Shown: piece after piece, positions 30,666 through 49,935 of the stretch | Position numbering within the stretch: position 1 is the stretch's first letter | Layout: each line of letters begins with the position of its first letter | The notes under the pieces: model-generated | Databases searched by the model: none | What the model was told of the DNA's origin: nothing | Seen by the model: only the letters and a program-made list of their open reading frames with translations | Source of the DNA: an uncultured Acidimicrobiales bacterium | GTDB lineage: Bacteria > Actinomycetota > Acidimicrobiia > Acidimicrobiales > SZUA-35 | Assembly: GCA_938002965.1 (NCBI GenBank) | Contig: CALKZY010000006.1 | Span: 129,057-193,056 of the forward strand | Direction of reading: 5' to 3' | DNA length: 64,000 nucleotides | Made by a program: the position numbers and the translations under genes

Positions 30666-33176
30666 CTACAGCGCGGAGTCGCCGACGGTTGGCTGGCTTG
30701 AATCGTCCGTGAGATCCAGCGCAGTCTGGCCGGGTCGGCCAGTGGTGACATCGATGACTTCCAGCGGGAACGTCCCGGTCTCAACCAGTTCAGCGAACAC
30801 AAACCGTCCGTCCCCAGCGGGGGCGAGCCACACCACCATCGACTTGCGTTCGGGGCGTCGGACGCCCACAACCTTCCCTTTGTCGGTCACCAACTTCCGC
30901 TCCGGGTGGTCTACCGTCATCGACACCGATGGGCATCGGCCGTCGCGAACCAGCTCGACCCGCCTGACCAGCGGACGGTCACCGGCGACTCGCAGACCGG
31001 CATCGCGCATCCGCGCCTGCCGGAGCTTCAGCTCATCAAAAATCGGCGTTCCGTCAAGAGCGATCTCTTCTTCACGATGTGACTCTGGTTCGCTCTGAAT
31101 TCGAAAATCGGTGTCCACCAGTGCGGCGGCAACATCGGTCCATCGCGAACGGACATTGTGCTGCTCAAGGGAAGCCGATAGTGACGTTGACGGCCGATCA
31201 GGGTGAAGCGCCGATCTGAACGGTCGAACCAAGCGATGGAAGACAGCGCCTTGGCCGAGGAGAGCCGGACCAAGAATAACCATCCCGGCAAGGCCGACAA
31301 CAGTGAGAACCAGGGCCAATCCCGTGCCGAAGCGGCCGGTGCCTGTGCCTGAACCTGCTAAGGCAGCAAGCGCCATGAACACCGAGAACACCACCGAAGC
31401 TGCGCCAACGACCACCACGCCATCGCCGGGATCAACCTCGCTTCGCTGCCCGACAAAGCCGAGGGCCCAGAGTAGAAAGAGCAGATTCGATAACACCAGC
31501 ACCGACAGAAGCTCGCCTGCCGCGACCTGTCCTGCCGCGATCCGATAGAGACCAACCGAAGCCGATCCGAGAATCATCACCAGAACGACAACCGTCGCCG
31601 CGTATGGTCGGTCCTGGGAACGCAGGAACGTCACCAGACCCGACATCACAGCCAACAGCGCAAGCGTCACCAGCGTCAGACTTCCCGAGCCGCGACTAGT
31701 CAATTCAGCCAGCGCCGGGCTACTCACCGAGAGGCCGTCGAACGAACGCACATCATCCAGCAGTTCCGCGCCTTCCGTGCTGGCAAGCGACACCGAAGGC
31801 ACGATGATGGCCGAACGGCTGAGATCCTCGGGATCCCAACCTTGTCGGCCCAACACACTCGGCGACAGCAATGAAACACCGTCAACCGCCGGTTGAACGT
31901 CAGCCGCAATGTGCCTCATGGTCGCAGTGTCCACCCAGGCCACAGACGTCAACGGCACGACGGTGGCCGCGATGTCATCGATGGTGGCCGCTGACGACTC
32001 ATCCAAGGTAACGACCAAGCCCTCCGTTGGGTTGCCCGCACCAAGGTCGAACAGGTCATCTGCCACCCCGCCGTCAACATCGGCGAGGGCCAGCTGGCGA
32101 CTCGGTTGCCCGAAGGCAAAGACGGCAAGAAGAACGAGGAAGGCGACTGCAGCCAGAACTGCGCTCGGAGTCGCCGGCACCGTACGTAGGCCGTCAAGCA
32201 TGGCACGCACTGTCGGTACGGGGTTGCGTGGGCGCGTGAGGTGGGCCCCCAGAACACCGACGGTCAGCCCCGACGCCATCACAGAACCAGTTAGCACCAC
32301 AGCCACAAGCAAGCCGATGGCCACCGACCAGACCGGGTGTGAGATCAAACCAAAGACGGACAGGATCGAGCCGACAGCCAGCAGGCCAAGCCCGACCATA
32401 GCGATGTCGGTACAGCTTGAAACCACCGAACGTTGGATCATCTCGGCACCGTCTTCCCCATCCGGGGATCGGAACCAGATATACATCCGCCAGCAGACGA
32501 GACAAGCAGTGATCAACGCAGCCAAAGCGCTGACGACCTCAGTGGAGGCGATGGTGCCGTCGTAGGGTCCGTTGACCTGCCGGGCCACTGATGGCCCAAG
32601 CACTGTCGAGCCAGCCAGTGTGGCCATTGTCAACGCTCCGACCAACCAATGGACACGAAGGGCTGCGACGACACCGACGACCACTGCTAGGACCACTAGC
32701 AACATGACAGCTGGCTCGTAGGACGTTCGGAGACCTTCCTCGATCATCAAACGGCCGGAGACATCAACCGAGCCCAATTCGACATCTTCGAATCCGGCCA
32801 GCGTCGACTCGACGTCGCCGACAATCCGATCCAGTGACCGGCGCTGCACTGAGGCATCGTCGGTGCCGAGATAGAATGCGGTCAGGTCTCCTGCCAGCCA
32901 GTCAACCGAACTGGTGGTGACACCCGGAATGCTCTCAAGTTCATTTCGGGCCACAGCCAGCCACTCGTCTTCGACCGAGCTGGCCACGTTGACTGTGGCG
33001 ACCAGGTCCGGCACAACGTCACCAGCTGACTCCGAAATGTCGGGGTTCGGATCAACCGATCCGAACAAAAGGGCTCCCCAGCCCAGCAAGGTCACAATCA
33101 GAGCCGCGACAAGCGAAAGTTTTCCTGCGGACTGACCGGTAAACCACCCGCTGATCGATCGCCTCCAGGAAGACAT
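30666..33176 (-). CDS. MMPL/RND-superfamily-like integral membrane protein with an extra C-terminal soluble domain of about 190 aa
   Basis: Twofold architecture (TM, large extracytoplasmic loop, about 5 TM; repeated). The C-terminal 190 aa has no TM and no family I can name. Confidence 0.55.
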   Translation of the reverse strand: MSSWRRSISGWFTGQSAGKLSLVAALIVTLLGWGALLFGSVDPNPDISESAGDVVPDLVATVNVASSVEDEWLAVARNELESIPGVTTSSVDWLAGDLTAFYLGTDDASVQRRSLDRIVGDVESTLAGFEDVELGSVDVSGRLMIEEGLRTSYEPAVMLLVVLAVVVGVVAALRVHWLVGALTMATLAGSTVLGPSVARQVNGPYDGTIASTEVVSALAALITACLVCWRMYIWFRSPDGEDGAEMIQRSVVSSCTDIAMVGLGLLAVGSILSVFGLISHPVWSVAIGLLVAVVLTGSVMASGLTVGVLGAHLTRPRNPVPTVRAMLDGLRTVPATPSAVLAAVAFLVLLAVFAFGQPSRQLALADVDGGVADDLFDLGAGNPTEGLVVTLDESSAATIDDIAATVVPLTSVAWVDTATMRHIAADVQPAVDGVSLLSPSVLGRQGWDPEDLSRSAIIVPSVSLASTEGAELLDDVRSFDGLSVSSPALAELTSRGSGSLTLVTLALLAVMSGLVTFLRSQDRPYAATVVVLVMILGSASVGLYRIAAGQVAAGELLSVLVLSNLLFLLWALGFVGQRSEVDPGDGVVVVGAASVVFSVFMALAALAGSGTGTGRFGTGLALVLTVVGLAGMVILGPALLGQGAVFHRLVRPFRSALHPDRPSTSLSASLEQHNVRSRWTDVAAALVDTDFRIQSEPESHREEEIALDGTPIFDELKLRQARMRDAGLRVAGDRPLVRRVELVRDGRCPSVSMTVDHPERKLVTDKGKVVGVRRPERKSMVVWLAPAGDGRFVFAELVETGTFPLEVIDVTTGRPGQTALDLTDDSSQPTVGDSAL

Positions 33177-39497: not shown

Positions 39498-40046
39498 TCA
39501 GGCCGCCCCACTGGAGGCATCGGCAGGAGGGGTAGTTGGAACTTCTTCGGTTATATGCACGAGGCTCGCCAGCGGATCACGGGCCTCTAGCGACTCCCGG
39601 ATTTCGGTGAGAGCCTCGCGGTACCGCTTTAGCTTCGCCTCGCCGGCGGCGATCTGAAGGCTTGCATCCTCGAGATCGTCTTTCAAGGCAGCGATCTCGA
39701 CTTGAGCATCGACATCGGGCGCAACGGTCGCAAGCACCGGGGAGGCCGGTTTCCATGACTGATCGGCCGACGACTGCCCCACGAGTCCTCCGTGACTCAG
39801 ATCCTGGGCCGATGGCTGCGCCAAGTTGTCGGAATACCCGTGTTGGAGTTGATGAATCTCGTGACGGAGGCGGCGATTCGTCTCACGATCTTCCGCTGCT
39901 TCACGCCGCGACTCATCGAGCGCTCGATCCTTGGCCGCCATGTCGTCGGCGAGTCCTTTGCGGACATTGCGAACAACAACCAGCATCAGCACAGAGAAAA
40001 CGATCGCTCCAATAGCGAATCCGATGAGCAACGCGGGAAGACTCAC
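39498..40046 (-). CDS. Membrane-anchored coiled-coil protein
   Basis: N-terminal TM (LLIGFAIGAIVFSVLMLVVV) followed by a charged heptad-like region. Confidence 0.45.
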   Translation of the reverse strand: MSLPALLIGFAIGAIVFSVLMLVVVRNVRKGLADDMAAKDRALDESRREAAEDRETNRRLRHEIHQLQHGYSDNLAQPSAQDLSHGGLVGQSSADQSWKPASPVLATVAPDVDAQVEIAALKDDLEDASLQIAAGEAKLKRYREALTEIRESLEARDPLASLVHITEEVPTTPPADASSGAA

Positions 40047-41475: not shown

Positions 41476-41672
41476 TCGAAGACTGCCCCCTCATTAAGCA
41501 CGATGGATTAGGAACAGCTCCACCGCCAACAGCGTCAGAGCCTTAGTAGGATCACAATGTAGCACGAGCGCCATGAACTACGGTAGATCCGGGCATGCCA
41601 GGATCGACAAGGGGTGTAGAGCCTCCCCAGCTATCGAGACGTGTCCAGGCCTAAGGACTTGGAGTAGCGCTG

Positions 41673-41909
41673 ATGAACGACAACCCCTCTGGGAACGACA
41701 CCGAAGCGCCAACTAAGGCGCCACCGTGCCCTCGTTGCGGGGGCGCGTTGTTTGATAACTCCGAGCCAGCGCGGTTCTACGGGCCGTGCAGCGATTGTCG
41801 CCAGCAATTGCGAGAGTCTCTGCGGGGTGAGATCAGCGAAACGACCGCAGCCGAGTACGAACCAAAGATGAACGTAACACCCAATGCCGTGGCGTTGAAA
41901 GACGACTAA
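41673..41909 (+). CDS. Small zinc-ribbon protein (CPRC...CSDC)
   Basis: 78 aa with two CxxC pairs 18 residues apart. It sits 17 nt upstream of the next gene. Confidence 0.4.
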   Translation: MNDNPSGNDTEAPTKAPPCPRCGGALFDNSEPARFYGPCSDCRQQLRESLRGEISETTAAEYEPKMNVTPNAVALKDD

Positions 41910-41926
41910 ACCCCGATGCCAAAGAC

Positions 41927-42586
41927 ATGAGCGACATCGGAACGTTGAACGAGCGGTCGCTCCACCGTTCGCTCAAGGAACTCCTCGCCGAGCGTGGCGA
42001 CGAGTTTGAGGTTCCCGTTGGCAATTTCGTTGTCGACATCAAACGCGGCAGCGAAATAATCGAAATTCAAACATCCTCTTTTGGAGCGATGGCCCGCAAG
42101 CTCGATGTGCTCTTGGACGCTCACACTGTTCGAATCGTGCACCCGATAGCCATCGAGACCTACCTCCACCGGGATAAACGCAAGCCACGGCGGTCGCCCA
42201 AAAAGGGCACGGTCTATTCGTTACTGGACGAACTGGTCAGTCTCCCGACGATGCTCGATCATCCGAATCTGACCGTCGACGCCGTCTTAGTGTCGGTCGA
42301 CAAGATTCAACGATTCGACGACCGGGCTAGACGGGGCAGGGGCGGCTGGGTCACTGTCGACCGTCGACTTCGAGAGATCCACGAGTGGCAACGATTCAAG
42401 ACCACCGGAGACCTCCTCGCCCTGCTGCCGCTAGGACTTCCCTCTCATTTCACTACTGCCGACATTGCTCCGGAGGTCGGGTCGCGCACCGCCGCCCAAC
42501 GTTTGGTTTACTGTCTTCGCCAGCTCGGTTCAATCGAGGTGGTCGACCGAACCCGCAGCGGCGTTGTCTATCAACTGGCAACCTGA
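41927..42586 (+). CDS. Conserved hypothetical protein, probable PD-(D/E)XK nuclease-like fold
   Basis: N-terminal ERSLHRSLKELL, then the VVDIKRGSEIIEIQTSSF motif (D ... E-x-Q), resembling CoiA-type/restriction-endonuclease-like cores. Confidence 0.45.
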   Translation: MSDIGTLNERSLHRSLKELLAERGDEFEVPVGNFVVDIKRGSEIIEIQTSSFGAMARKLDVLLDAHTVRIVHPIAIETYLHRDKRKPRRSPKKGTVYSLLDELVSLPTMLDHPNLTVDAVLVSVDKIQRFDDRARRGRGGWVTVDRRLREIHEWQRFKTTGDLLALLPLGLPSHFTTADIAPEVGSRTAAQRLVYCLRQLGSIEVVDRTRSGVVYQLAT

Positions 42587-42956
42587 TCTGCCCAGAGCGC
42601 CAGGGCAGGCCTGCCCATTCGCAGCATCAAGTCGGACCATTACTATTCGGTGCAGCAAATCGGATCGCCCCCGTACCGCCTAGTCGCCCGCCCAACAGCG
42701 ATTCGACACCGAACGACCTAATTAGGAGCGGATACCTACTGATGCGCTCTTCGGCAACATGAATCAACCTTCATGGGTTTTTGTCTTGAATGGTCGACGC
42801 GGAGCTGATCCACGGCTACCTTGGTGGCCAGCGGGCGACAGGGGACACTGACAACCTGTAGCTGTGGAGAAAATCAAACGACGACCGCTGCAAGCTGTCC
42901 ATGAAGCTGATAGTTTCGGGCTGCGAGGTATGGGCGCAGCACCGGCGGAGGTAATT

Positions 42957-45410
42957 GTGAACACAAACGATGAAACGGCGGCGGGCGCACGAGTCCTCTC
43001 ATCGAGCGGATTTGAGCACCTTCAGCTGTCTGACGGCGATTCATCGGTCAAGGTGACCATTGGTTCGATTGACCGTTGGGACCGTTCGCATCTGCGACGT
43101 CTCCGTCAGTCCGCAGACCTTCCGGGTCTTGTCCCCGTAATCGATAGCGATCTTTCCAGCGACGACAAGCCTTTCGCCGTCACCCCGCAGGTCAATCATC
43201 CCAGTCTCGCCGATCGCATTCCGCCCGAAGCCGCTCAGTGGCCTGAGTGTGCCGCCATCGTTGAGGCTTCCGCCCGTGCGCTACACGAGGCCCATCTACG
43301 TGGCCTCTTCCACGGCAGCCTCTCCCCCAACCAGATCTACGTCATCAACGAGGACATCGCTGTCGAAGGCGTCGGACTCGGCCTTGGCGGTGTCGTTCAG
43401 GCTGACTATCAGCACTGGGCCGCTCCTGAGGTCCTCGACGGCGCCGACGCTACCGAGCGTTCGGATGTCTATTCGCTCGGCAAGATCCTTGAGTCAGCGC
43501 TTGGCAACAACATCGAGGACGTACCCCGTTCGGTGCGGCGTCTTATCATGTGGTCCAGCTCGGACACACCTGAGGCCCGACCACCGTCGGCACTCGAATT
43601 CGCCAGCATTCTGGCAGAAGCGCTCGGCGACGAACGCCGAATCTACTCGCCTGCCTTCATTCCAACCGCTGACGTCAACGCCTTGGCGGCAACCGCTTCG
43701 GCCGAAGTCGCAGCTCATGAGCTCGCCGATCCCGGCACCTCATCAACCAGTGCCGGCGTAGCCACAGCTGCTGTAGCGGCTGGAACTGGAGCAGTAGTCG
43801 CCGAAAAGTTCTTCGACGATGAACCGGAGATCGATGACCCCGCCGCCGGACTCGAGGTTGTCGATGAAGCCGACGCCGACCTCGACGTCGACGCGGACCT
43901 CGAAGAAATCGACCTTGACGCAGACGATGAGATCGACTCATTCGACGACGAGATCGCAGAAGACGACGCAACCATCGACGTCGAAAAAGAAGCCGTCATC
44001 ACTGACGAGATTCCCGAAATGGAAATCGGCAACGAGGCGGCGACCACTACCGAGATCGAAGGCGAAGCAGCCGCCACCTCCGGTGAAACGTCCTCAGGAT
44101 TCGACTCTCGGGACTACACCGCGGCCACTACGACCGCTGACAACTACGAAGTCCCAGCCGCACAGACGGTAGAAATCGTCAGCCCACAGGAACCAAGCAA
44201 GCGCTCCAACAGAGCCGGAATTCTGGTTGGCGTAATCGCCGCTCTCGGATTGGCTCTGATCTTCTGGCAGCTGTTCAACGGGGATTCCGGCGATGAGACC
44301 GAGGTCGCCGCCAACCCCGCAGCGGAAGAGGCAGTGGAAGCCGAAGAAGACGCTGAAGCTTCGGTCTCCTCCGAAGACAGCACCCCCGAGGCGCCAACCG
44401 CCACCGATGACGAGGCAGAAGCCGCTGCAGCCGAAGAAGCAGCTGCGGCTGAAGAAGAAGCCGCTGCAGCTGAAGCCGCCGAAGAAGCAGCTGCGGCTGA
44501 AGAAGAAGCCGCTGCAGCTGAAGTCGCCGAAGCTGAGGAAGCATCCGAGACTGAAGAAGCAGCCGAAGAAGCATCAGAGACTGAAGAAGAAGCAGCCGAG
44601 GAAGAGTCCACCGATGAACCGGCGGAACCCGCTGAGGCAGCCGCATCGCTGCTTGACGGCCCAATCCCCGCTGACGAGGCGGGGGTTCAAATCGTCCACG
44701 GGATTCCCGGAGCCACGGTTGACGTCTACGTCGACGGCCAGGCACTTGCTCCCGGCTTCGCCCCAGGCACAATCGCTGGTCCGGTCGACCTCGCACCTGG
44801 AAACTACGAGGTAGAGATCTTTGCAGTCTCCGACGTTGCACCGGCTGCCAGTGCGGATCGCGATGACCAAGCCCTGCTGTCGCAGACCATCGCAGTAGGC
44901 GACAGTGCCGCATCGCTCTACGCCCACCTAGGTGAACAGGGTGCTCCCGCACTAAGCGCCTTTGGCGAGGACTTCACCACGCTGGCACCAGGCCAAGGAA
45001 GAGCCGTCGCCCGACACCTGGCGGCTGCTCCGGAGGTCTCCCTCCTGGTTGACGGCGAACCTGTTGGCACCTTGGCCAACGGCGACGCCTTTGGCGCTGA
45101 CCTGGATGCAGGTGCTCACGACTTTGCTGTGCTGGCCGGAGACACCGAAGTCTTGGCCGCCACGCTCGACATCGCCGATGGCGAAGTGGTTGTGGTCTCG
45201 GTGACGGGCTCAGTCGCCGACGGAACGCTCGCTCCGGTCGTACAGCGATACAGCGGACTAAGCTCCGCTCCCACCGAGGTACCGACTGGCAACAGCAACC
45301 TGCTGGGCATGGACGAGGACATGACGAATCTCTACATCGTCGGTGTCGTAACTCTGGCGATGGCGCTCGGTGGCTTGGTGATAATAAGTCGCCGCCGTCG
45401 ACTTCTGTGA
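42957..45410 (+). CDS. Membrane protein: degenerate Ser/Thr-kinase-like (pseudokinase) domain, acidic linker, TM, E/A-rich stalk, DUF4397-like domain, C-terminal TM plus Arg tail
   Basis: Kinase C-lobe remnants AAPEVL and SDVYSLGKIL are present. HRDLKPxN is replaced by FHGSLSPNQ, and no G-loop, VAIK or DFG is visible. The TM is AGILVGVIAALGLALIFWQLF. The DUF4397-like block reads VQIVHGIPGATVDVYVDG...APGNYEVEIF. GTG 42957 follows GGAGG; the ORF track starts at 42864. Confidence 0.7.
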   Translation: MNTNDETAAGARVLSSSGFEHLQLSDGDSSVKVTIGSIDRWDRSHLRRLRQSADLPGLVPVIDSDLSSDDKPFAVTPQVNHPSLADRIPPEAAQWPECAAIVEASARALHEAHLRGLFHGSLSPNQIYVINEDIAVEGVGLGLGGVVQADYQHWAAPEVLDGADATERSDVYSLGKILESALGNNIEDVPRSVRRLIMWSSSDTPEARPPSALEFASILAEALGDERRIYSPAFIPTADVNALAATASAEVAAHELADPGTSSTSAGVATAAVAAGTGAVVAEKFFDDEPEIDDPAAGLEVVDEADADLDVDADLEEIDLDADDEIDSFDDEIAEDDATIDVEKEAVITDEIPEMEIGNEAATTTEIEGEAAATSGETSSGFDSRDYTAATTTADNYEVPAAQTVEIVSPQEPSKRSNRAGILVGVIAALGLALIFWQLFNGDSGDETEVAANPAAEEAVEAEEDAEASVSSEDSTPEAPTATDDEAEAAAAEEAAAAEEEAAAAEAAEEAAAAEEEAAAAEVAEAEEASETEEAAEEASETEEEAAEEESTDEPAEPAEAAASLLDGPIPADEAGVQIVHGIPGATVDVYVDGQALAPGFAPGTIAGPVDLAPGNYEVEIFAVSDVAPAASADRDDQALLSQTIAVGDSAASLYAHLGEQGAPALSAFGEDFTTLAPGQGRAVARHLAAAPEVSLLVDGEPVGTLANGDAFGADLDAGAHDFAVLAGDTEVLAATLDIADGEVVVVSVTGSVADGTLAPVVQRYSGLSSAPTEVPTGNSNLLGMDEDMTNLYIVGVVTLAMALGGLVIISRRRRLL
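44431..44600 (+). repeat. In-frame tandem repeats in the E/A-rich stalk (48-bp unit x2, then a ~30-bp unit x2)
   Basis: The 45-nt string CCGAAGAAGCAGCTGCGGCTGAAGAAGAAGCCGCTGCAGCTGAAG occurs at 44431-44475 and again at 44479-44523. GAAGCATC(C/A)GAGACTGAAGAA..GCAGCC is repeated at about 44538-44597. Confidence 0.9.
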
Positions 45411-46078
45411 ACTCACGGGTTCGCTCCGGAGTCCTCGTACTAGCAATCTCTCTTTGCCTGATGGGCGCTGCCACGTCAAGTGGTGGCGCCATCGGCGCGT
45501 CCATCAGTGACACCATCTCGTCTAGGTCCTTACCAGACAACCTGGTCAACCTGGTTGATGAGTTGGCCTCGCCACAGGTTCCGCTGCGGAGCGGCAATTT
45601 GGCCGACCAGCCAGAGCCTGAGAGCGGCCCCTCTCCCGTAGCCGTTCGAATTGGCGACATCGCGCTCGAGGCCCCCGTCATTCCGGTGGGGGTCGACAGC
45701 GAAAATCAGTTCGCTGTACCGGCGGCGGAACAGGTCGGTTGGTATAGGTTCGGTCCCCGTCCCGGGACCGAAGGTTCAGCGGTACTAGCCGCTCACGTCG
45801 ACTACGGAGGCAAACCGGGAGCGTTCTTCAACCTGGCCGAGCTGCGGGTCGGTGACCCAATCGAGGTCGAGCTCAGTGATGGTTCCGTCCTGCGCTACCG
45901 GGTGACAGGAAATACCGAGTACGACAAGACAGATCTGCCATTCGAGGACGTCTTCCGCAAAGAAGGTTCTGAAGTCCTGCAGCTCATCACCTGTGGCGGC
46001 ACGTTTGATCCAAACGCTCGGTCCTATGAGGCCAACATTGTGGTTACCGCACTCCCCGAGGCGCTCGTCGAGTTCTAG
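45407..46078 (+). CDS. Sortase-family transpeptidase (class F-like)
   Basis: N-terminal TM anchor, catalytic His region (AVLAAHVDY), LQLITCGG (TLxTC-type Cys) and a conserved Arg near the C-terminus. Its GTG overlaps the stop of the upstream gene (GTGA 45407-45410). Confidence 0.8.
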   Translation: MNSRVRSGVLVLAISLCLMGAATSSGGAIGASISDTISSRSLPDNLVNLVDELASPQVPLRSGNLADQPEPESGPSPVAVRIGDIALEAPVIPVGVDSENQFAVPAAEQVGWYRFGPRPGTEGSAVLAAHVDYGGKPGAFFNLAELRVGDPIEVELSDGSVLRYRVTGNTEYDKTDLPFEDVFRKEGSEVLQLITCGGTFDPNARSYEANIVVTALPEALVEF

Positions 46079-46098
46079 CGATCTGGCACCAACCGTCG

Positions 46099-46806
46099 CT
46101 ACAAACCGCTGCTGGCCACTCGAGCACTAACCGTCCGAGCGCTGACACGGTATCCCATCACCCGGTAGAGGGCCGCTAGCCGCTGTTGGAGCTGATCGTC
46201 GTCAGGTACGGCCCTGAGCGCTTGTTCGAGCGCCCACACCGCCTCTTGGGTACGCCCAGTAGCCGTGAGGGCATCACACGCCGCGGCTGCAAGCTGGGTT
46301 ACCTGTCTTTCGACATGTGCCCGCTGGACGAAACAGCGCTCCAGCCAGATCCAGTAGGCCCGCCCCGCCCCCGCAGACCGATGAAGAGGAAGCCCATTGA
46401 CCTCGGCCAACGCCCCGAGCGCTGCTGTCAACCAGTCATATCCAGCCTGCCTACTCCCGCACAACGTCTCCAGTCGGGTGACATCACTACAGACATCGGA
46501 CAGGCGATAGTAGCCATCATCGGCGGCCGGCAGCCGCTGTCGCCCGATGACACCTCGGACCTCGGCCAACAGATTTGGCAGCCGGCTCGGCGACATCACC
46601 CGGCCTTGCCACAGCGCATGGGCGATGTCATCACCCGATACCGGACCGCAGAGGCCGACGAAAGCCACCAAGGACTGCTGTTGGTGGGTCAGCTTCCGTC
46701 CACCCAACCGCACCACCGGCGGCCCAATGAGGCGGAGATGCAACAACGGATCTTCGGCGCGACAAGTAGAAGAACCGACGCCGACGTCGGCACGAATGAC
46801 AAACAT
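46099..46806 (-). CDS. SARP/AfsR-DnrI-like regulator (OmpR-type winged helix plus BTAD domain)
   Basis: LHLRLIGPPVVRLGGRKL...LVAFVGL....ALW, then a TPR-like BTAD helical region (EAVWALEQALRAVPDDDQLQQRLAALYRVMG). Confidence 0.65.
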   Translation of the reverse strand: MFVIRADVGVGSSTCRAEDPLLHLRLIGPPVVRLGGRKLTHQQQSLVAFVGLCGPVSGDDIAHALWQGRVMSPSRLPNLLAEVRGVIGRQRLPAADDGYYRLSDVCSDVTRLETLCGSRQAGYDWLTAALGALAEVNGLPLHRSAGAGRAYWIWLERCFVQRAHVERQVTQLAAAACDALTATGRTQEAVWALEQALRAVPDDDQLQQRLAALYRVMGYRVSARTVSARVASSGL

Positions 46807-47160
46807 GGAAACCCGCTTTCCAAGACTGGACAATAATGACCAGCCAACACACAAACGCTTAAGCTAGTCGATCGCGTCGGCCTCGGCAACCGCGTCGACG
46901 CCACTAGTTGTCGGCGCCGGCGCAGAATCCTGCAATTGGACCCCGAGCGAGCCCAACTCGAGATACAGCCGCTCGAGGTGTCGAATGCCAACCTCGAGTG
47001 ACTCCAGATCCGGGTTGGTCACGGGCTCTGCCCGACGGGAGGGCACAACTTCTACTGGACCGGCTGGGAGCGACATAATGCCGACCCTACTACGCGAGTC
47101 CCGCCGAATATCGTAAATAAGTGACTCGCCTTACAGGGCAAATAGTCCAAATACTTGGAC

Positions 47161-47196
47161 GTCAATCTACCTATTTCTACAAATAGATAGATTGAC
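47161..47196. promoter_or_regulatory. 36-bp near-perfect palindrome (16-bp arms, 15/16 match, 4-bp spacer) in an AT-rich intergenic region; candidate operator
   Basis: GTCAATCTACCTATTT ctac AAATAGATAGATTGAC, about 100 bp upstream of the pepN start and between divergent genes. Confidence 0.4.
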
Positions 47197-47295
47197 GACC
47201 GTAGACATCCAACCGACCTACACGATGAGCGAACCAGACCGCAACTGACCGACAGTCCAATCCGGGCACCCCGACTGGGGCCCGACAAGCATGCG

Positions 47296-49935
47296 GTGAC
47301 AAGCAGTCAGCGGCTACCAGCTTCCAGGCCCGCTACGATCAAGATCGTGTCCGAGACAAACAAGCACCGTCTTCCCTCCACCGTTATTCCCAACGCTTAT
47401 GACCTGACGTTCGAGCCACATTTTGAACGCAAGACGTTCACGGGTCGGGTGTCGATCGATGCCACTGTTCAAGAAGCAACGTCCAGTATTGTCCTCAACG
47501 GCGAAGACCTTCAGGTCGATCTGGCCGCCGTCGTCGTCGGAGACAAGAGACACCCCTGCACTATCGAACTAGACGCAGAGAACGAACGAATCAAGCTCGA
47601 GACCGAGGAAGCCATTGAGCCGGGCTCGATCTCCGTTGAGCTTTCGTTTGCCGGATCGTTCAATGAGAGCCTGGTTGGCCCTTATCTGAGCACATTCGAG
47701 GACGTCGCCGGGGTCACCCGAACTCTTGCCACAACCCAGTTTCAGGCCACCCACGCACGAAAGTGTTTCCCCTGCTGGGACGAGCCAGATTTGAAGGCGA
47801 CGTTCTCTGTAACCCTCGTCGTACCCGAGGGGATGGACGGCGTTTCCAACGGTGCCGAAGCCCAGCGACTTGAACACGACGGCAAGCAGCACATTTCGTT
47901 CGCTCCAACCATTGCGATGAGCACTTATCTCGTTGCCTTCGTCATTGGGCCGATCGAAAAGTCTGCGCCGGTCGACGTCGACGGCGTTCCGCTTCGGATC
48001 GTGCACATCCCGGGCAAGGGACATCTGACCAACTTTGCCCTCGATGCTGGGGCCTTTGCCTTGAGATATTTCAAGGAGTACTTCGGTCTCCCGTACCCTG
48101 GCCAGAAACTCGACTTGGTCGCCATTCCCGACTTCGCCTTCGGGGCCATGGAAAACCTAGGCTGCGTGACCTTCCGGGAGACTCTCCTGCTGGTCGATCC
48201 CGATAGGGCAACTCAGCCGGAGCTACAGCGGGCTGCGGACGTAATCAATCACGAGTTGGCTCACATGTGGTTTGGCGACCTGGTCACGATGAAGTGGTGG
48301 AACGGCCTCTGGCTGAACGAAGCATTCGCCACCTTCATGGAGATGCGTTGCACCGACGCCTACCGGCCCGAGTGGGATCGATGGACGGACTTCGGCCTGT
48401 CCCGCTCAGCAGCGTTTGCCACCGACTCGTTAGCCTCAACCCGGCCCATCGAATACGAGGTCATCAGCCCGGTGGAAGCAGAGGGAATGTTCGACATCCT
48501 CACCTACGAAAAGGGAGCAGCCGTCGTTCGGATGCTCGAACAGTACCTAGGCGAAGAACCCTTCCGGGAAGGCATCCGCCGGTACATGCGCGAGCACCAA
48601 TTCGGTAATGCCGACACACCTGACCTGTGGGCGGCCATCGAAGCCGAAACCGGCGAGCCCGTCGCCGACATCATGCACAGCTGGATCTACCAAGGTGGGT
48701 ACCCACAGATCCACGTTGCGACGGCTCCGAACGGGACAACAACAATTCATCAACAGCCAGTGCAGCTCGACGGCGCCGACCCGGTTCCTCAGCAAGAGTG
48801 GCTTGTACCAGTCGAATATCGCTGGGTTGACGACAGCCTAAACAGCCACTGGGACGACAGTACCGTAACCAACCCGACTTCCATTCGGACCCTCCTGGGA
48901 CCGGAACCAATGAGTATCGGCGAAGCGCCGGTGACCGGAGCCAGCGCACTCGTCAACGCCATGAGTAGAGGCTTCTATCGGGTGAGCTACGACGATGAAG
49001 CTCGCGACAACCTGACTGACATCGCGGCTGACGCGCTCACTGCTGTCGAGCGCTATTCGCTGGTCGACGACTCCTGGGCCTCAGTTCTAACCGGCCAGAC
49101 TTCTGCCGTGTCGTTCCTCACTCTGCTTGAAGCGATGACCGGCGAATCCAACCGCTCTGTGTGGCAACGGATCATTGCCGGCTTCGGGAGTCTTAGGCGG
49201 CTCATCGACGGCGAAGCCCAAGAGCGACTGGAAGAGATCGCCCACGACGCTCTGGCACCCAACCTTGCGGGACTCGGCTTGGAGAGCCGCCCGGAGGACA
49301 CTGACCAGGAACGGCAACTGCGGGCCGACCTCTTCCGGGCCCTGGGCACCCTGGCCAATGATGCTGACATCCAAGAAGTAGCGAAACAGATCTCCGCTGA
49401 AGGTCTCCGGGACCCCGAGCTGGTCGATACATCTCTTCTAGCTGCGGCAACCGATGTCGTAGCTGCAGGCGGAGATCAAGCCGACTTCGACGACTTCCTC
49501 GAAGCCTCGCGTGCGGCCACCACTCCTCAGGCCGAGCTTCGCTACCTCGGCGCTCTCATGGACTTCCCATCTGTCGAGCAACAGTCGCGCATGTGGACGA
49601 TGATCACTGACGGCACAGTCAGAAGCCAAAATGGCCCACTGCTGCTCCGCCGAGGTCTGCTCAATGAGGAATGCGGCCGTCAGACCTGGGCCTTCATAGC
49701 CGACAACTGGGACGAACTGAACGATCTGTTCGCCTCGAGCCTGATTGTGAGGATGGTTGAGGGCGTTAATGTTCACAATCGTGCTTCCGATCAGGAAGCG
49801 GTGTCGGCCTTTTTCTCCAGTCATCACGTTCCAAGCGGCGAACGAACTCTGCATCAGATCCTCGAGCGCCAGCGGGTGAACGTTTCCCTTCGTTCGCGCC
49901 AGTCAGATTTGCTCGCTCGATTCCTGACCAGCTGA
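47296..49935 (+). CDS. pepN: Aminopeptidase N (M1 family)
   Basis: GAMEN exopeptidase motif (FGAMENLG) and zinc motif HELAHMWFGD-x18-E (NEAF). 879 aa. GTG start. Confidence 0.9.
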   Translation: MTSSQRLPASRPATIKIVSETNKHRLPSTVIPNAYDLTFEPHFERKTFTGRVSIDATVQEATSSIVLNGEDLQVDLAAVVVGDKRHPCTIELDAENERIKLETEEAIEPGSISVELSFAGSFNESLVGPYLSTFEDVAGVTRTLATTQFQATHARKCFPCWDEPDLKATFSVTLVVPEGMDGVSNGAEAQRLEHDGKQHISFAPTIAMSTYLVAFVIGPIEKSAPVDVDGVPLRIVHIPGKGHLTNFALDAGAFALRYFKEYFGLPYPGQKLDLVAIPDFAFGAMENLGCVTFRETLLLVDPDRATQPELQRAADVINHELAHMWFGDLVTMKWWNGLWLNEAFATFMEMRCTDAYRPEWDRWTDFGLSRSAAFATDSLASTRPIEYEVISPVEAEGMFDILTYEKGAAVVRMLEQYLGEEPFREGIRRYMREHQFGNADTPDLWAAIEAETGEPVADIMHSWIYQGGYPQIHVATAPNGTTTIHQQPVQLDGADPVPQQEWLVPVEYRWVDDSLNSHWDDSTVTNPTSIRTLLGPEPMSIGEAPVTGASALVNAMSRGFYRVSYDDEARDNLTDIAADALTAVERYSLVDDSWASVLTGQTSAVSFLTLLEAMTGESNRSVWQRIIAGFGSLRRLIDGEAQERLEEIAHDALAPNLAGLGLESRPEDTDQERQLRADLFRALGTLANDADIQEVAKQISAEGLRDPELVDTSLLAAATDVVAAGGDQADFDDFLEASRAATTPQAELRYLGALMDFPSVEQQSRMWTMITDGTVRSQNGPLLLRRGLLNEECGRQTWAFIADNWDELNDLFASSLIVRMVEGVNVHNRASDQEAVSAFFSSHHVPSGERTLHQILERQRVNVSLRSRQSDLLARFLTS

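Follow-up and report, generated by a model that had tools for sequence, protein, structure and literature searches.

A stretch of 64,000 nucleotides (nt) from an uncultured Acidimicrobiales bacterium (contig CALKZY010000006.1), referred to below as the window, carries two overlapping genes on its plus strand. The first codes for a predicted transmembrane pseudokinase with a DUF4397 ectodomain and the second for a sortase. The pseudokinase protein ends in a tail that resembles a cell wall sorting signal, and the two proteins are likely to form a pair of substrate and enzyme. The features of the locus are given in Table 1.

The first gene lies within an open reading frame (ORF) that spans 42864-45410 in the ORF list of the window. 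Its true start is the GTG at 42957, since GGAGG is found 5 nt upstream and the homologues begin with MVNT or MNT at the equivalent residue; the product has 817 residues. An exact look-up of this 817-residue protein gave no match, probably because the gene callers chose another start. In public records its relatives are labeled "hypothetical protein" or "DUF4397 domain-containing protein."

Table 1. Features of the pseudokinase-sortase locus and of related cassettes (positions are those of the window unless a locus is named; TM1, first transmembrane helix; ECF, extracytoplasmic function)
Feature	Position	Strand	Basis
Ribosome-binding site GGAGG, 5 nt before GTG	42947..42951	+	Read from sequence
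Gene for the 817-residue predicted transmembrane pseudokinase-DUF4397 protein, stop codon included	42957..45410	+	ORF list, conserved architecture
Predicted cytoplasmic pseudokinase domain, residues ~12-248, bilobal kinase fold	42990..43700	+	AlphaFold2, Foldseek, hmmsearch, hhalign
Catalytic-loop remnant FHGSLSPNQ, residues 118-126 (HRD to HGS, catalytic-loop Lys to Ser, Asn to Gln)	43308..43334	+	Alignments to PknA and kinase profile
GVGLGLGG in place of DFG (Asp to Gly138), start of shortened activation segment	43368..43391	+	Alignments
Retained C-lobe landmarks, APE (AAPEVL) and alphaF motif SDVYSLGKIL	43419..43490	+	Alignments, sequence
Predicted cytoplasmic low-complexity linker, Ala/Asp/Glu-rich, residues 249-414	43701..44198	+	Composition
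KRSNR (residues 415-419) and TM1 AGILVGVIAALGLALIFWQLF (residues 420-440)	44199..44276	+	Hydropathy
Predicted extracellular low-complexity stalk, Glu/Ala-rich, residues 441-564	44277..44648	+	Composition
Two tandem immunoglobulin-like beta-sandwich domains (DUF4397), residues ~577-766	44685..45254	+	Pfam, AlphaFold2
Conserved sorting-like motif GLSSAPTEVPTGNSNL, residues 767-782, core VPTG (775-778) at 45279-45290	45255..45302	+	Tail alignment
Remainder of motif-helix spacer	Residues 783-791	+	Sequence
Hydrophobic helix LYIVGVVTLAMALGGLVIIS (residues 792-811) and basic tail RRRRLL (812-817)	45330..45407	+	Hydropathy, sequence
Tail peptide GLSSAPTEVPTGNSNLLG, spanning P776, T777, and G778			
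GTGA overlap of the pseudokinase gene stop with the sortase GTG start	45407..45410	+	Sequence; also in genome loci
Sortase gene, 223 residues; membrane anchor at residues 8-24, His130, Cys196 (LITCGG), Arg205	45407..46078	+	Pfam, NCBIfam, alignment
Stand-alone DUF4397 cassettes linked to ECF sigma factor genes	L039 5795-7358; L041 5532-7071; L125 5095-6481; L126 6038-7350; L127 5038-5701		

The N-terminal domain is predicted to adopt a Hanks-type kinase fold. It missed the threshold of the Pfam Pkinase model (PF00069), with 15.4 bits and an E value of 0.012 against a cutoff of 31.7 bits, and only the stretch from APE to alphaF was covered; other searches gave significant matches. In a phmmer search of the PDB sequences, the domain matched PknI (1.3e-6) and PknB (4.5e-5). 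A profile built from an alignment of 16 divergent family members matched PknA in the PDB at 3.6e-15 (hmmsearch). Run against 5.8 billion database proteins, it also matched proteins annotated as Ser/Thr kinases, with E values from 1e-19 to 1e-11. A comparison with an alignment of true kinases by hhalign gave a probability of 99.9% (E 7e-35, residues 54-228). The AlphaFold2 model obtained with the same 16 sequences (pLDDT 90.7, pTM 0.88) shows three N-lobe strands, the alphaC helix, and a full C-lobe, and its best Foldseek matches in the PDB were PknA (E 2e-10), PknS, Stk1, PknG, and PknB, all between 2e-10 and 3e-9. Word-indexed protein searches returned just four homologues of the domain, partial and close; the family becomes visible only through exhaustive profile search and genome scan.

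We then compared the catalytic positions of the domain with those of true kinases. The HRDxKPxN loop aligns to HGSLSPNQ, or in more general form HRDxKxxN to HG[S/A]LSPxx; the family pattern is HG[A/S/G]L with an invariant HG, and HGD occurs in a single distant member, which has neither the Lys nor the Asn. The counterpart of DFG is G138-V-G140. At least 90% of the 16 members have Gly138, the glycines at 138, 140, 144, and 145 are invariant or nearly so, and the pattern GxGLxxGG is nearly invariant. The Gly-rich loop GxGxxG is absent from the domain, and no Lys or Glu column is conserved in N-lobe residues 1-53 across the 16 divergent members, the invariants of alphaC being W41, H45, and L49. 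For the loss of the beta3 Lys and the alphaC Glu we rely on the AlphaFold2 model together with family conservation, as sequence comparison gave no alignment of the N-lobe with kinases. Lys32 (in VKV) was considered as the VAIK lysine and rejected, as it is D, I, E, Q, or L in relatives. What is kept is the APE (residues 155-160 form AAPEVL), the alphaF D-x-x-S-L-G motif (within SDVYSLGKIL, residues 169-178), and the alphaH-I Arg. With HRD changed to HGS, DFG to GVG, and no conserved beta3 Lys, alphaC Glu, or Gly-rich loop, all six canonical positions appear lost, and the domain is predicted to be a pseudokinase by the usual definition.

These results agree with the original prediction, which had been made from the letters of the window and had described a degenerate kinase-like domain with FHGSLSPNQ in place of HRDLKPxN and without a Gly-rich loop, VAIK lysine, or DFG. 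The strings it quoted (FHGSLSPNQ, AAPEVL, SDVYSLGKIL, and the RRRR tail) are all present in the translation, the profile searches and the structure model bear out the kinase fold, and proper alignment revealed no retained catalytic set. Among the three Pfam families it had named, DUF4397 and Sortase scored above threshold and Pkinase below.

The pseudokinase domain is followed by the linker, TM1, and the stalk. The N-terminus is predicted to be cytoplasmic because basic residues precede TM1 and an acidic stretch follows it, in keeping with the positive-inside rule. The opposite arrangement, with an extracellular kinase-like domain, was rejected, as the protein has no signal peptide and the charges flanking TM1 obey the rule. 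A motif R/K-x-N-R-AG at TM1 is conserved in the homologues. The stalk consists of about 38% Ala and 33% Glu. Among the homologues the linker ranges from 56 to 238 residues and the stalk from 57 to 242, and their composition is also free to vary, with stalks rich in T, A, E, D, or P, unlike the domains, TM1, and the tail motif, which are constant. The stalk DNA contains a tandem duplication of 48 bp (44430-44532; 2.1 copies with 98% identity) and, adjacent to it, a 30-bp repeat (44529-44604), which points to a recent length change of the spacer. The predicted succession of an Asp/Glu-rich linker, one transmembrane helix, an E/A-rich stalk, and a C-terminal hydrophobic helix with RRRR was thus confirmed by composition and hydropathy.

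Beyond the stalk lies the DUF4397 part, which scored 59.7 bits (E 5.3e-16) with the Pfam model PF14344, against a cutoff of 30.6 bits. The AlphaFold2 model of the ectodomain (pLDDT 86.9) has two tandem sandwiches, then a flexible segment, and then a long helix, so that the DUF4397-like domain foreseen from the sequence was found, but not as a single beta domain. A Foldseek search with this model returned generic two-sandwich ectodomains only, namely, the extracellular domain of PepT1/2 (E 2e-5), the luminal domain of HGSNAT, and, weakly, AlgF; these fold matches suggested no ligand.

The C-terminal tail has the layout of VPTG, a 13-residue spacer, the hydrophobic helix, and RRRRLL, with the four arginines at residues 812-815. 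The consensus of the family tails is GLx[ST][AP]Pxx[VI]P[TSA]G[DN]x[GN]L, after which come a variable spacer, a hydrophobic stretch of about 20 residues, and an end rich in Arg. Of 60 tails, those of stand-alone DUF4397 proteins (see below) included, 59 have the [VI]P[TSA]G core. Its position, after the last beta-strand and before the C-terminal helix, is constant even where the N-terminal domains are only ~30-40% identical. The spacer and the helix around the motif vary, the helix being far less conserved than the motif that precedes it. In the AlphaFold2 model the motif segment is flexible (pLDDT 53-62).

LPXTG, LAXTG, and NPXTN occur nowhere in the 817-residue protein. The tail alone scored 18.3 bits with the LPXTG_anchor model TIGR01167 (cutoff, 15.9 bits), the match being confined to profile positions 6-33, i.e., to the helix and basic tail; the full-length protein scored 11.5 bits, below the cutoff. 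In an NCBIfam scan of five C-terminal tails, no sorting-domain model covered [VI]P[TSA]G, and GVDTG_CTERM and PVV_CTERM remained below threshold. The pseudokinase gene is the sole ORF with such a tail in the window. As judged from sequence and structure model, the C-terminus appears sorting-signal-like, having the three-part layout of a cell wall sorting signal with [VI]P[TSA]G in the place of LPXTG.

The second gene codes for a protein that matched the Pfam Sortase model (PF04203) at an E value of 1e-20, with 74.2 bits against a cutoff of 26.6. His130 (in LAAHVDY) and Cys196 (in LITCGG) were invariant in the 43 sequences aligned, and Arg205 was found in 36 of them. Among the NCBIfam sortase models, class_F_sortase (NF033748) was the best by more than 100 bits, any other model giving less than 31 bits and class C 19 bits; its score of 142 bits is nevertheless below the class cutoff of 166. 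The same was true of six other DUF4397-linked sortases, which scored 112 to 138 bits. A phmmer search of the sortase against the PDB sequences gave no match at E values up to 0.01. The enzyme had been expected to be class F-like, and class F is indeed the nearest class; given the cutoff, it is best described, from these profile scores, as belonging to a sister subgroup of class F.

To see how far the fusion and its pairing with the sortase are conserved, we scanned genomes, one per species. This gave 38 loci, all in metagenome-assembled genomes (MAGs) of Acidimicrobiales or Acidimicrobiia, with N-domain identities of 56 to 93%. The pseudokinase and DUF4397 parts lay in one gene in all 34 loci with enough downstream DNA. 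The sortase gene was directly downstream in 34/34 informative loci, the other four of the 38 ending at a contig edge. The GTGA overlap, which the original prediction had placed at the same nucleotides of the window, was kept as a 4-nt overlap (GTGA or ATGA) in 32 of the 34. Three of the 34 loci (L014, L025, and L037) have a pseudokinase gene that is broken up over reading frames; these genes could be pseudogenes or assembly errors in low-complexity parts. Two MAGs carry two pseudokinase-sortase pairs each, on different contigs (L023 and L037 in JAWKIL01, L034 and L038 in CAZKEM01). The typical gene order was aroA, an ABC ATPase, a 219-residue protein without assignment, the pseudokinase-sortase pair, a SARP-like regulator, and pepN.

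A metagenome scan with a four-sequence subgroup yielded ten family loci, among which one, L044, was both distant and complete. Its N-domain is far more divergent (phmmer E 6e-38, versus 1e-80 or better for the intact genes in the genome loci), yet the fusion is kept and the sortase gene lies 45 nt downstream. The neighbors are unrelated (an acyl-CoA dehydrogenase and an aldo-keto reductase), and none of the other genes adjoining the pair in the window is found there. In the exhaustive profile search, 21 cluster representatives came out below 1e-30, and every distant one among them (P0033-P0048) had the full architecture and the tail. The adjacency with the sortase, on which the original prediction depended, thus held both in the genome loci and in the distant L044. 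The two-gene module is apparently confined to Acidimicrobiia.

The ectodomain and tail are in addition homologous, at 33 to 38% identity, to DUF4397 proteins of 265 to 280 residues from other Actinobacteria, such as Aquipuribacter hungaricus and Cryobacterium. These stand-alone proteins share with the window protein the two-sandwich ectodomain, the motif, the helix, and the basic tail, and a sortase of the same subgroup is encoded directly downstream. They differ from it in that a cleavable-looking signal peptide replaces the pseudokinase, linker, TM1, and stalk and in that the cassette usually stands beside genes for an ECF sigma factor and an RskA-type anti-sigma factor. The sortase gene was directly 3' of the DUF4397 gene in six of the seven contexts examined. 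In the exception, P0016 (L124, 3501-4376), the [VI]P[TSA]G motif is replaced by PGASVNTGG. No sortase is encoded within 3.5 kb of P0016, and transposase fragments adjoin; it is the single natural case in which both the motif and the sortase are absent. An ECF sigma factor gene was present in five of the seven contexts (Table 1). It is followed by a gene for an RskA_C anti-sigma factor in L125 and L126 and for a protein without a Pfam assignment in L039 and L041, while in L127 the contig end cuts the gene. The ECF association hints that the cassette belongs to an envelope-signaling unit.

Since the motif is conserved, the sortase gene is adjacent and, by its overlap, translationally coupled, the catalytic His and Cys are invariant, and the tail is unique in the 64-kb window, it is quite probable that the sortase and the pseudokinase protein are enzyme and substrate. 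The whole chain, i.e., a receptor-like transmembrane pseudokinase with a dedicated sortase that makes of it a membrane-to-wall tether, is a reading we are somewhat inclined to accept. Cys196 of the sortase would cleave within or next to [VI]P[TSA]G, and the new C-terminus would be transferred to a peptidoglycan precursor, by analogy with the cut between T and G of LPXTG. TM1 would be a signal anchor, as in PknB, and the mature protein would remain in the membrane because its N-terminal transmembrane helix is not a cleavable signal peptide. With its outer end covalently fixed to the wall, it would form a bridge from cytoplasm to wall that is held at both ends. More speculatively, the pseudokinase may serve as a non-catalytic docking or dimerization scaffold, like the pseudokinase domains of MviN and EssB discussed below, and may link cytoplasmic partners to the wall's state or position. 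Tentatively, we propose that a class F-like sortase recognizes a new signal, [VI]P[TSA]G, and staples a transmembrane pseudokinase to peptidoglycan; such a covalent connection between wall and scaffold could possibly sense or transmit wall growth, tension, or turnover.

We infer cleavage and wall attachment from the linkage of the genes and the conserved motif, and several points weigh against this tether. The motif matches none of the known sortase motifs: VPTG has no residue at the X position of LPXTG, and its Thr is often Ser or Ala. Classic sorting signals have a shorter spacer between motif and helix than the ~13 residues seen here. A putative catalytic Arg is absent from 7 of the 43 sortases, and the enzyme of the window stays below the class F cutoff. 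No gene for a kinase or an FHA protein that could be a partner of the pseudokinase was found among the window genes scanned. Finally, the loci are largely syntenic, so that the adjacency is partly inherited, and independent support comes from L044 and the stand-alone cassettes.

The linkage of the two genes and the conservation of the motif would fit equally well if the sortase only processed its neighbor, cleaving at the motif with the acyl-enzyme resolved by water or another acceptor, so that the helix is removed, e.g., as a maturation or regulatory step, and no attachment to peptidoglycan follows. What class F enzymes catalyze in the cell is not known, and Actinoplanes showed no phenotype when all four srtF genes were deleted (PMC13251363). 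However, all characterized sortases are transpeptidases acting on three-part signals of such a layout (PMC8225981), and the stand-alone DUF4397 relatives resemble ordinary wall-anchored proteins; we regard processing without attachment as unlikely.

It is also improbable, in our view, that the C-terminal helix is a permanent second span, which would make the pseudokinase a hairpin protein and the sortase an enzyme of other substrates that is merely coexpressed with it. The departure of the motif from LPXTG and the subthreshold TIGR01167 score of the full-length protein would agree with such an arrangement, and, given their synteny, the 38 loci could make the linkage look stronger than it is. 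Against it, conservation is far higher in the motif than in the helix after it. Motif and sortase occur together in three unrelated contexts and are both absent in P0016, the 4-nt overlap is conserved, and the window offers no other candidate substrate.

The view that the N-terminal domain has kept an enzymatic activity, as an atypical kinase or in some other reaction that uses nucleotides, concerns the cytoplasmic end of the protein. It could draw on His113 and His119 and the GVGLGLGG segment, which are invariant across the family, and on the fact that some so-called pseudokinases bind ATP or catalyze other reactions (SidJ, WNK, and DLHK; PMC12599244). All six canonical positions are lost, however, no conserved Lys, Asp, or Asn is found near the cleft, and ATP binding is almost always missing from families in which all three motifs are degraded (PMC12599244), which makes residual activity very unlikely. 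Least credible of all is a polymerization of the DUF4397 modules into a pilus-like or sheet-like surface structure: tandem Ig-like domains beside a dedicated sortase do recall loci of pilin and sortase C, and Foldseek gave weak matches to Bacteroides fimbrial and adhesin folds, but subunits with an N-terminal membrane anchor and a 420-residue cytoplasmic part are unfit for a fiber, the sortase is not of class C, and among the invariant columns no Lys stands out, a pilin-motif Lys not having been searched for as such.

The genes around the pair were inspected as well. The upstream gene on the same strand (41927-42586) codes for a 219-residue protein with no Pfam or NCBIfam match and is directly upstream in 32 of the 38 loci. 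Convergent with the sortase gene is a gene for a 251-residue protein (46099-46854, minus strand), with weak matches to BTAD (E 0.0067) and TPR_14 (E 1.4e-4) and an N-terminus that resembles a winged helix. It is syntenic in 26 of the 38 loci and may be a small SARP-like regulator, and it is probably not a required part of the module because it is absent near L044. Both flanking genes were considered as required parts and rejected, neither being present around L044. Farther away are a minus-strand gene for a 182-residue protein with an N-terminal hydrophobic helix and no Pfam match (39498-40046), syntenic in 24 of the 38 loci, and an 836-residue ORF (30666-33176, minus strand) with no Pfam match at E values up to 1e-5, the surroundings of which are ordinary metabolic genes (trehalose metabolism, aroA, and an ABC-F ATPase). 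An Rfam scan of 41500-47400 gave no match at E values up to 1. Between 42400 and 46400, no promoter-like site was seen, and the terminator-like sites were all on the minus strand and not clearly commoner than in shuffled sequences.

Among known systems, the receptor-type Hanks kinases PknA, PknB, and PknI are closest in sequence and structure and share with the window protein a cytoplasmic kinase fold, a single transmembrane helix, and an extracellular sensor. PknA and PknB are active kinases, and the PASTA domains of PknB bind muropeptides non-covalently. The domain in the window, by contrast, has none of the catalytic residues, and the ectodomain is a predicted target of sortase-mediated attachment to the wall.

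The nearest pseudokinase family in concept is ActPs3, with MviN (MurJ, Rv3910) of Mycobacterium tuberculosis, which we compared by description. Like the window protein, MviN has an actinobacterial intracellular kinase fold with all motifs degraded and a shortened activation segment, followed by a transmembrane helix and an extracellular beta-rich domain, and it acts as a scaffold in cell wall homeostasis (PMC12599244). The window protein shares the ActPs3 features of three degraded motifs and a transmembrane helix C-terminal to the domain (features per PMC12599244); its activation segment is about 10 residues shorter than that of PknA, compared with a hallmark deletion of about 40 residues given in the ActPs3 description. 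MviN differs in having a flippase domain and a carbohydrate-binding-like ectodomain, where the window protein has DUF4397 and no flippase domain, and in lacking a sorting signal and a dedicated sortase. MviN structures were absent among the 50 Foldseek and 60 phmmer matches listed, which included PknA, PknB, and PknI. EssB/YukC of type VIIb secretion likewise crosses the membrane once and serves as an assembly scaffold; its cytoplasmic pseudokinase fold has degraded motifs and an attenuated activation loop (PMC12599244). It belongs, however, to a secretion machine of Firmicutes and has no DUF4397, sorting signal, or sortase.

Seven bacterial pseudokinase families have been described, ActPs1-3, GLW, CP1, DYD, and DLHK, and DUF4397, sortases, and Acidimicrobiia are not mentioned in the pseudokinase review and the atlas preprint. 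The atlas was seeded from homologues of Pfam PF00069; since the domain in the window missed the threshold of that model, the family is probably outside the published atlas.

The pairing of one sortase with one dedicated, adjacent substrate bearing a variant motif has precedents in SrtB-IsdC and in the class GN "marine" sortase with its target. Those systems involve other sortase classes and motifs, and we know of no substrate of that type that keeps a membrane anchor and a cytoplasmic signaling-type domain. On the side of class F, SrtF of Propionibacterium acnes resembles the window sortase in being an actinobacterial enzyme with an N-terminal membrane anchor, and class F gave the best match; it is a housekeeping enzyme that recognizes LPXTG (PMC8225981), while the window sortase, which fails the class cutoff, is paired with a single [VI]P[TSA]G substrate. 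Class F has one characterized member, which is LPXTG specific (PMC8225981), and its physiological role in actinomycetes is unknown (PMC13251363). In the literature searched, nothing linked sortases to pseudokinases or to DUF4397, and the module was not described; within that literature, the architecture is as unusual as the original prediction had held it to be. What appears new within that literature is the combination of a receptor-like predicted pseudokinase with a candidate dedicated sortase substrate and a non-canonical motif.

Class F sortases are widespread in Actinobacteria, and at this locus a sortase is strictly paired with a probable substrate whose motif is defined and differs from LPXTG. 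If our reading is true, this would be the first physiological substrate and motif for this sortase subgroup. Sortase substrates normally lose their membrane anchor; one that keeps its N-terminal span together with a cytoplasmic domain would join membrane and wall covalently in an envelope of the Gram-positive type, similar in principle to Braun's lipoprotein of Gram-negatives. Little is understood of bacterial pseudokinases, and in the present case the ectodomain suggests what the pseudokinase may connect to. The occurrence of related cassettes beside pairs of ECF sigma and anti-sigma factors points to envelope signaling.

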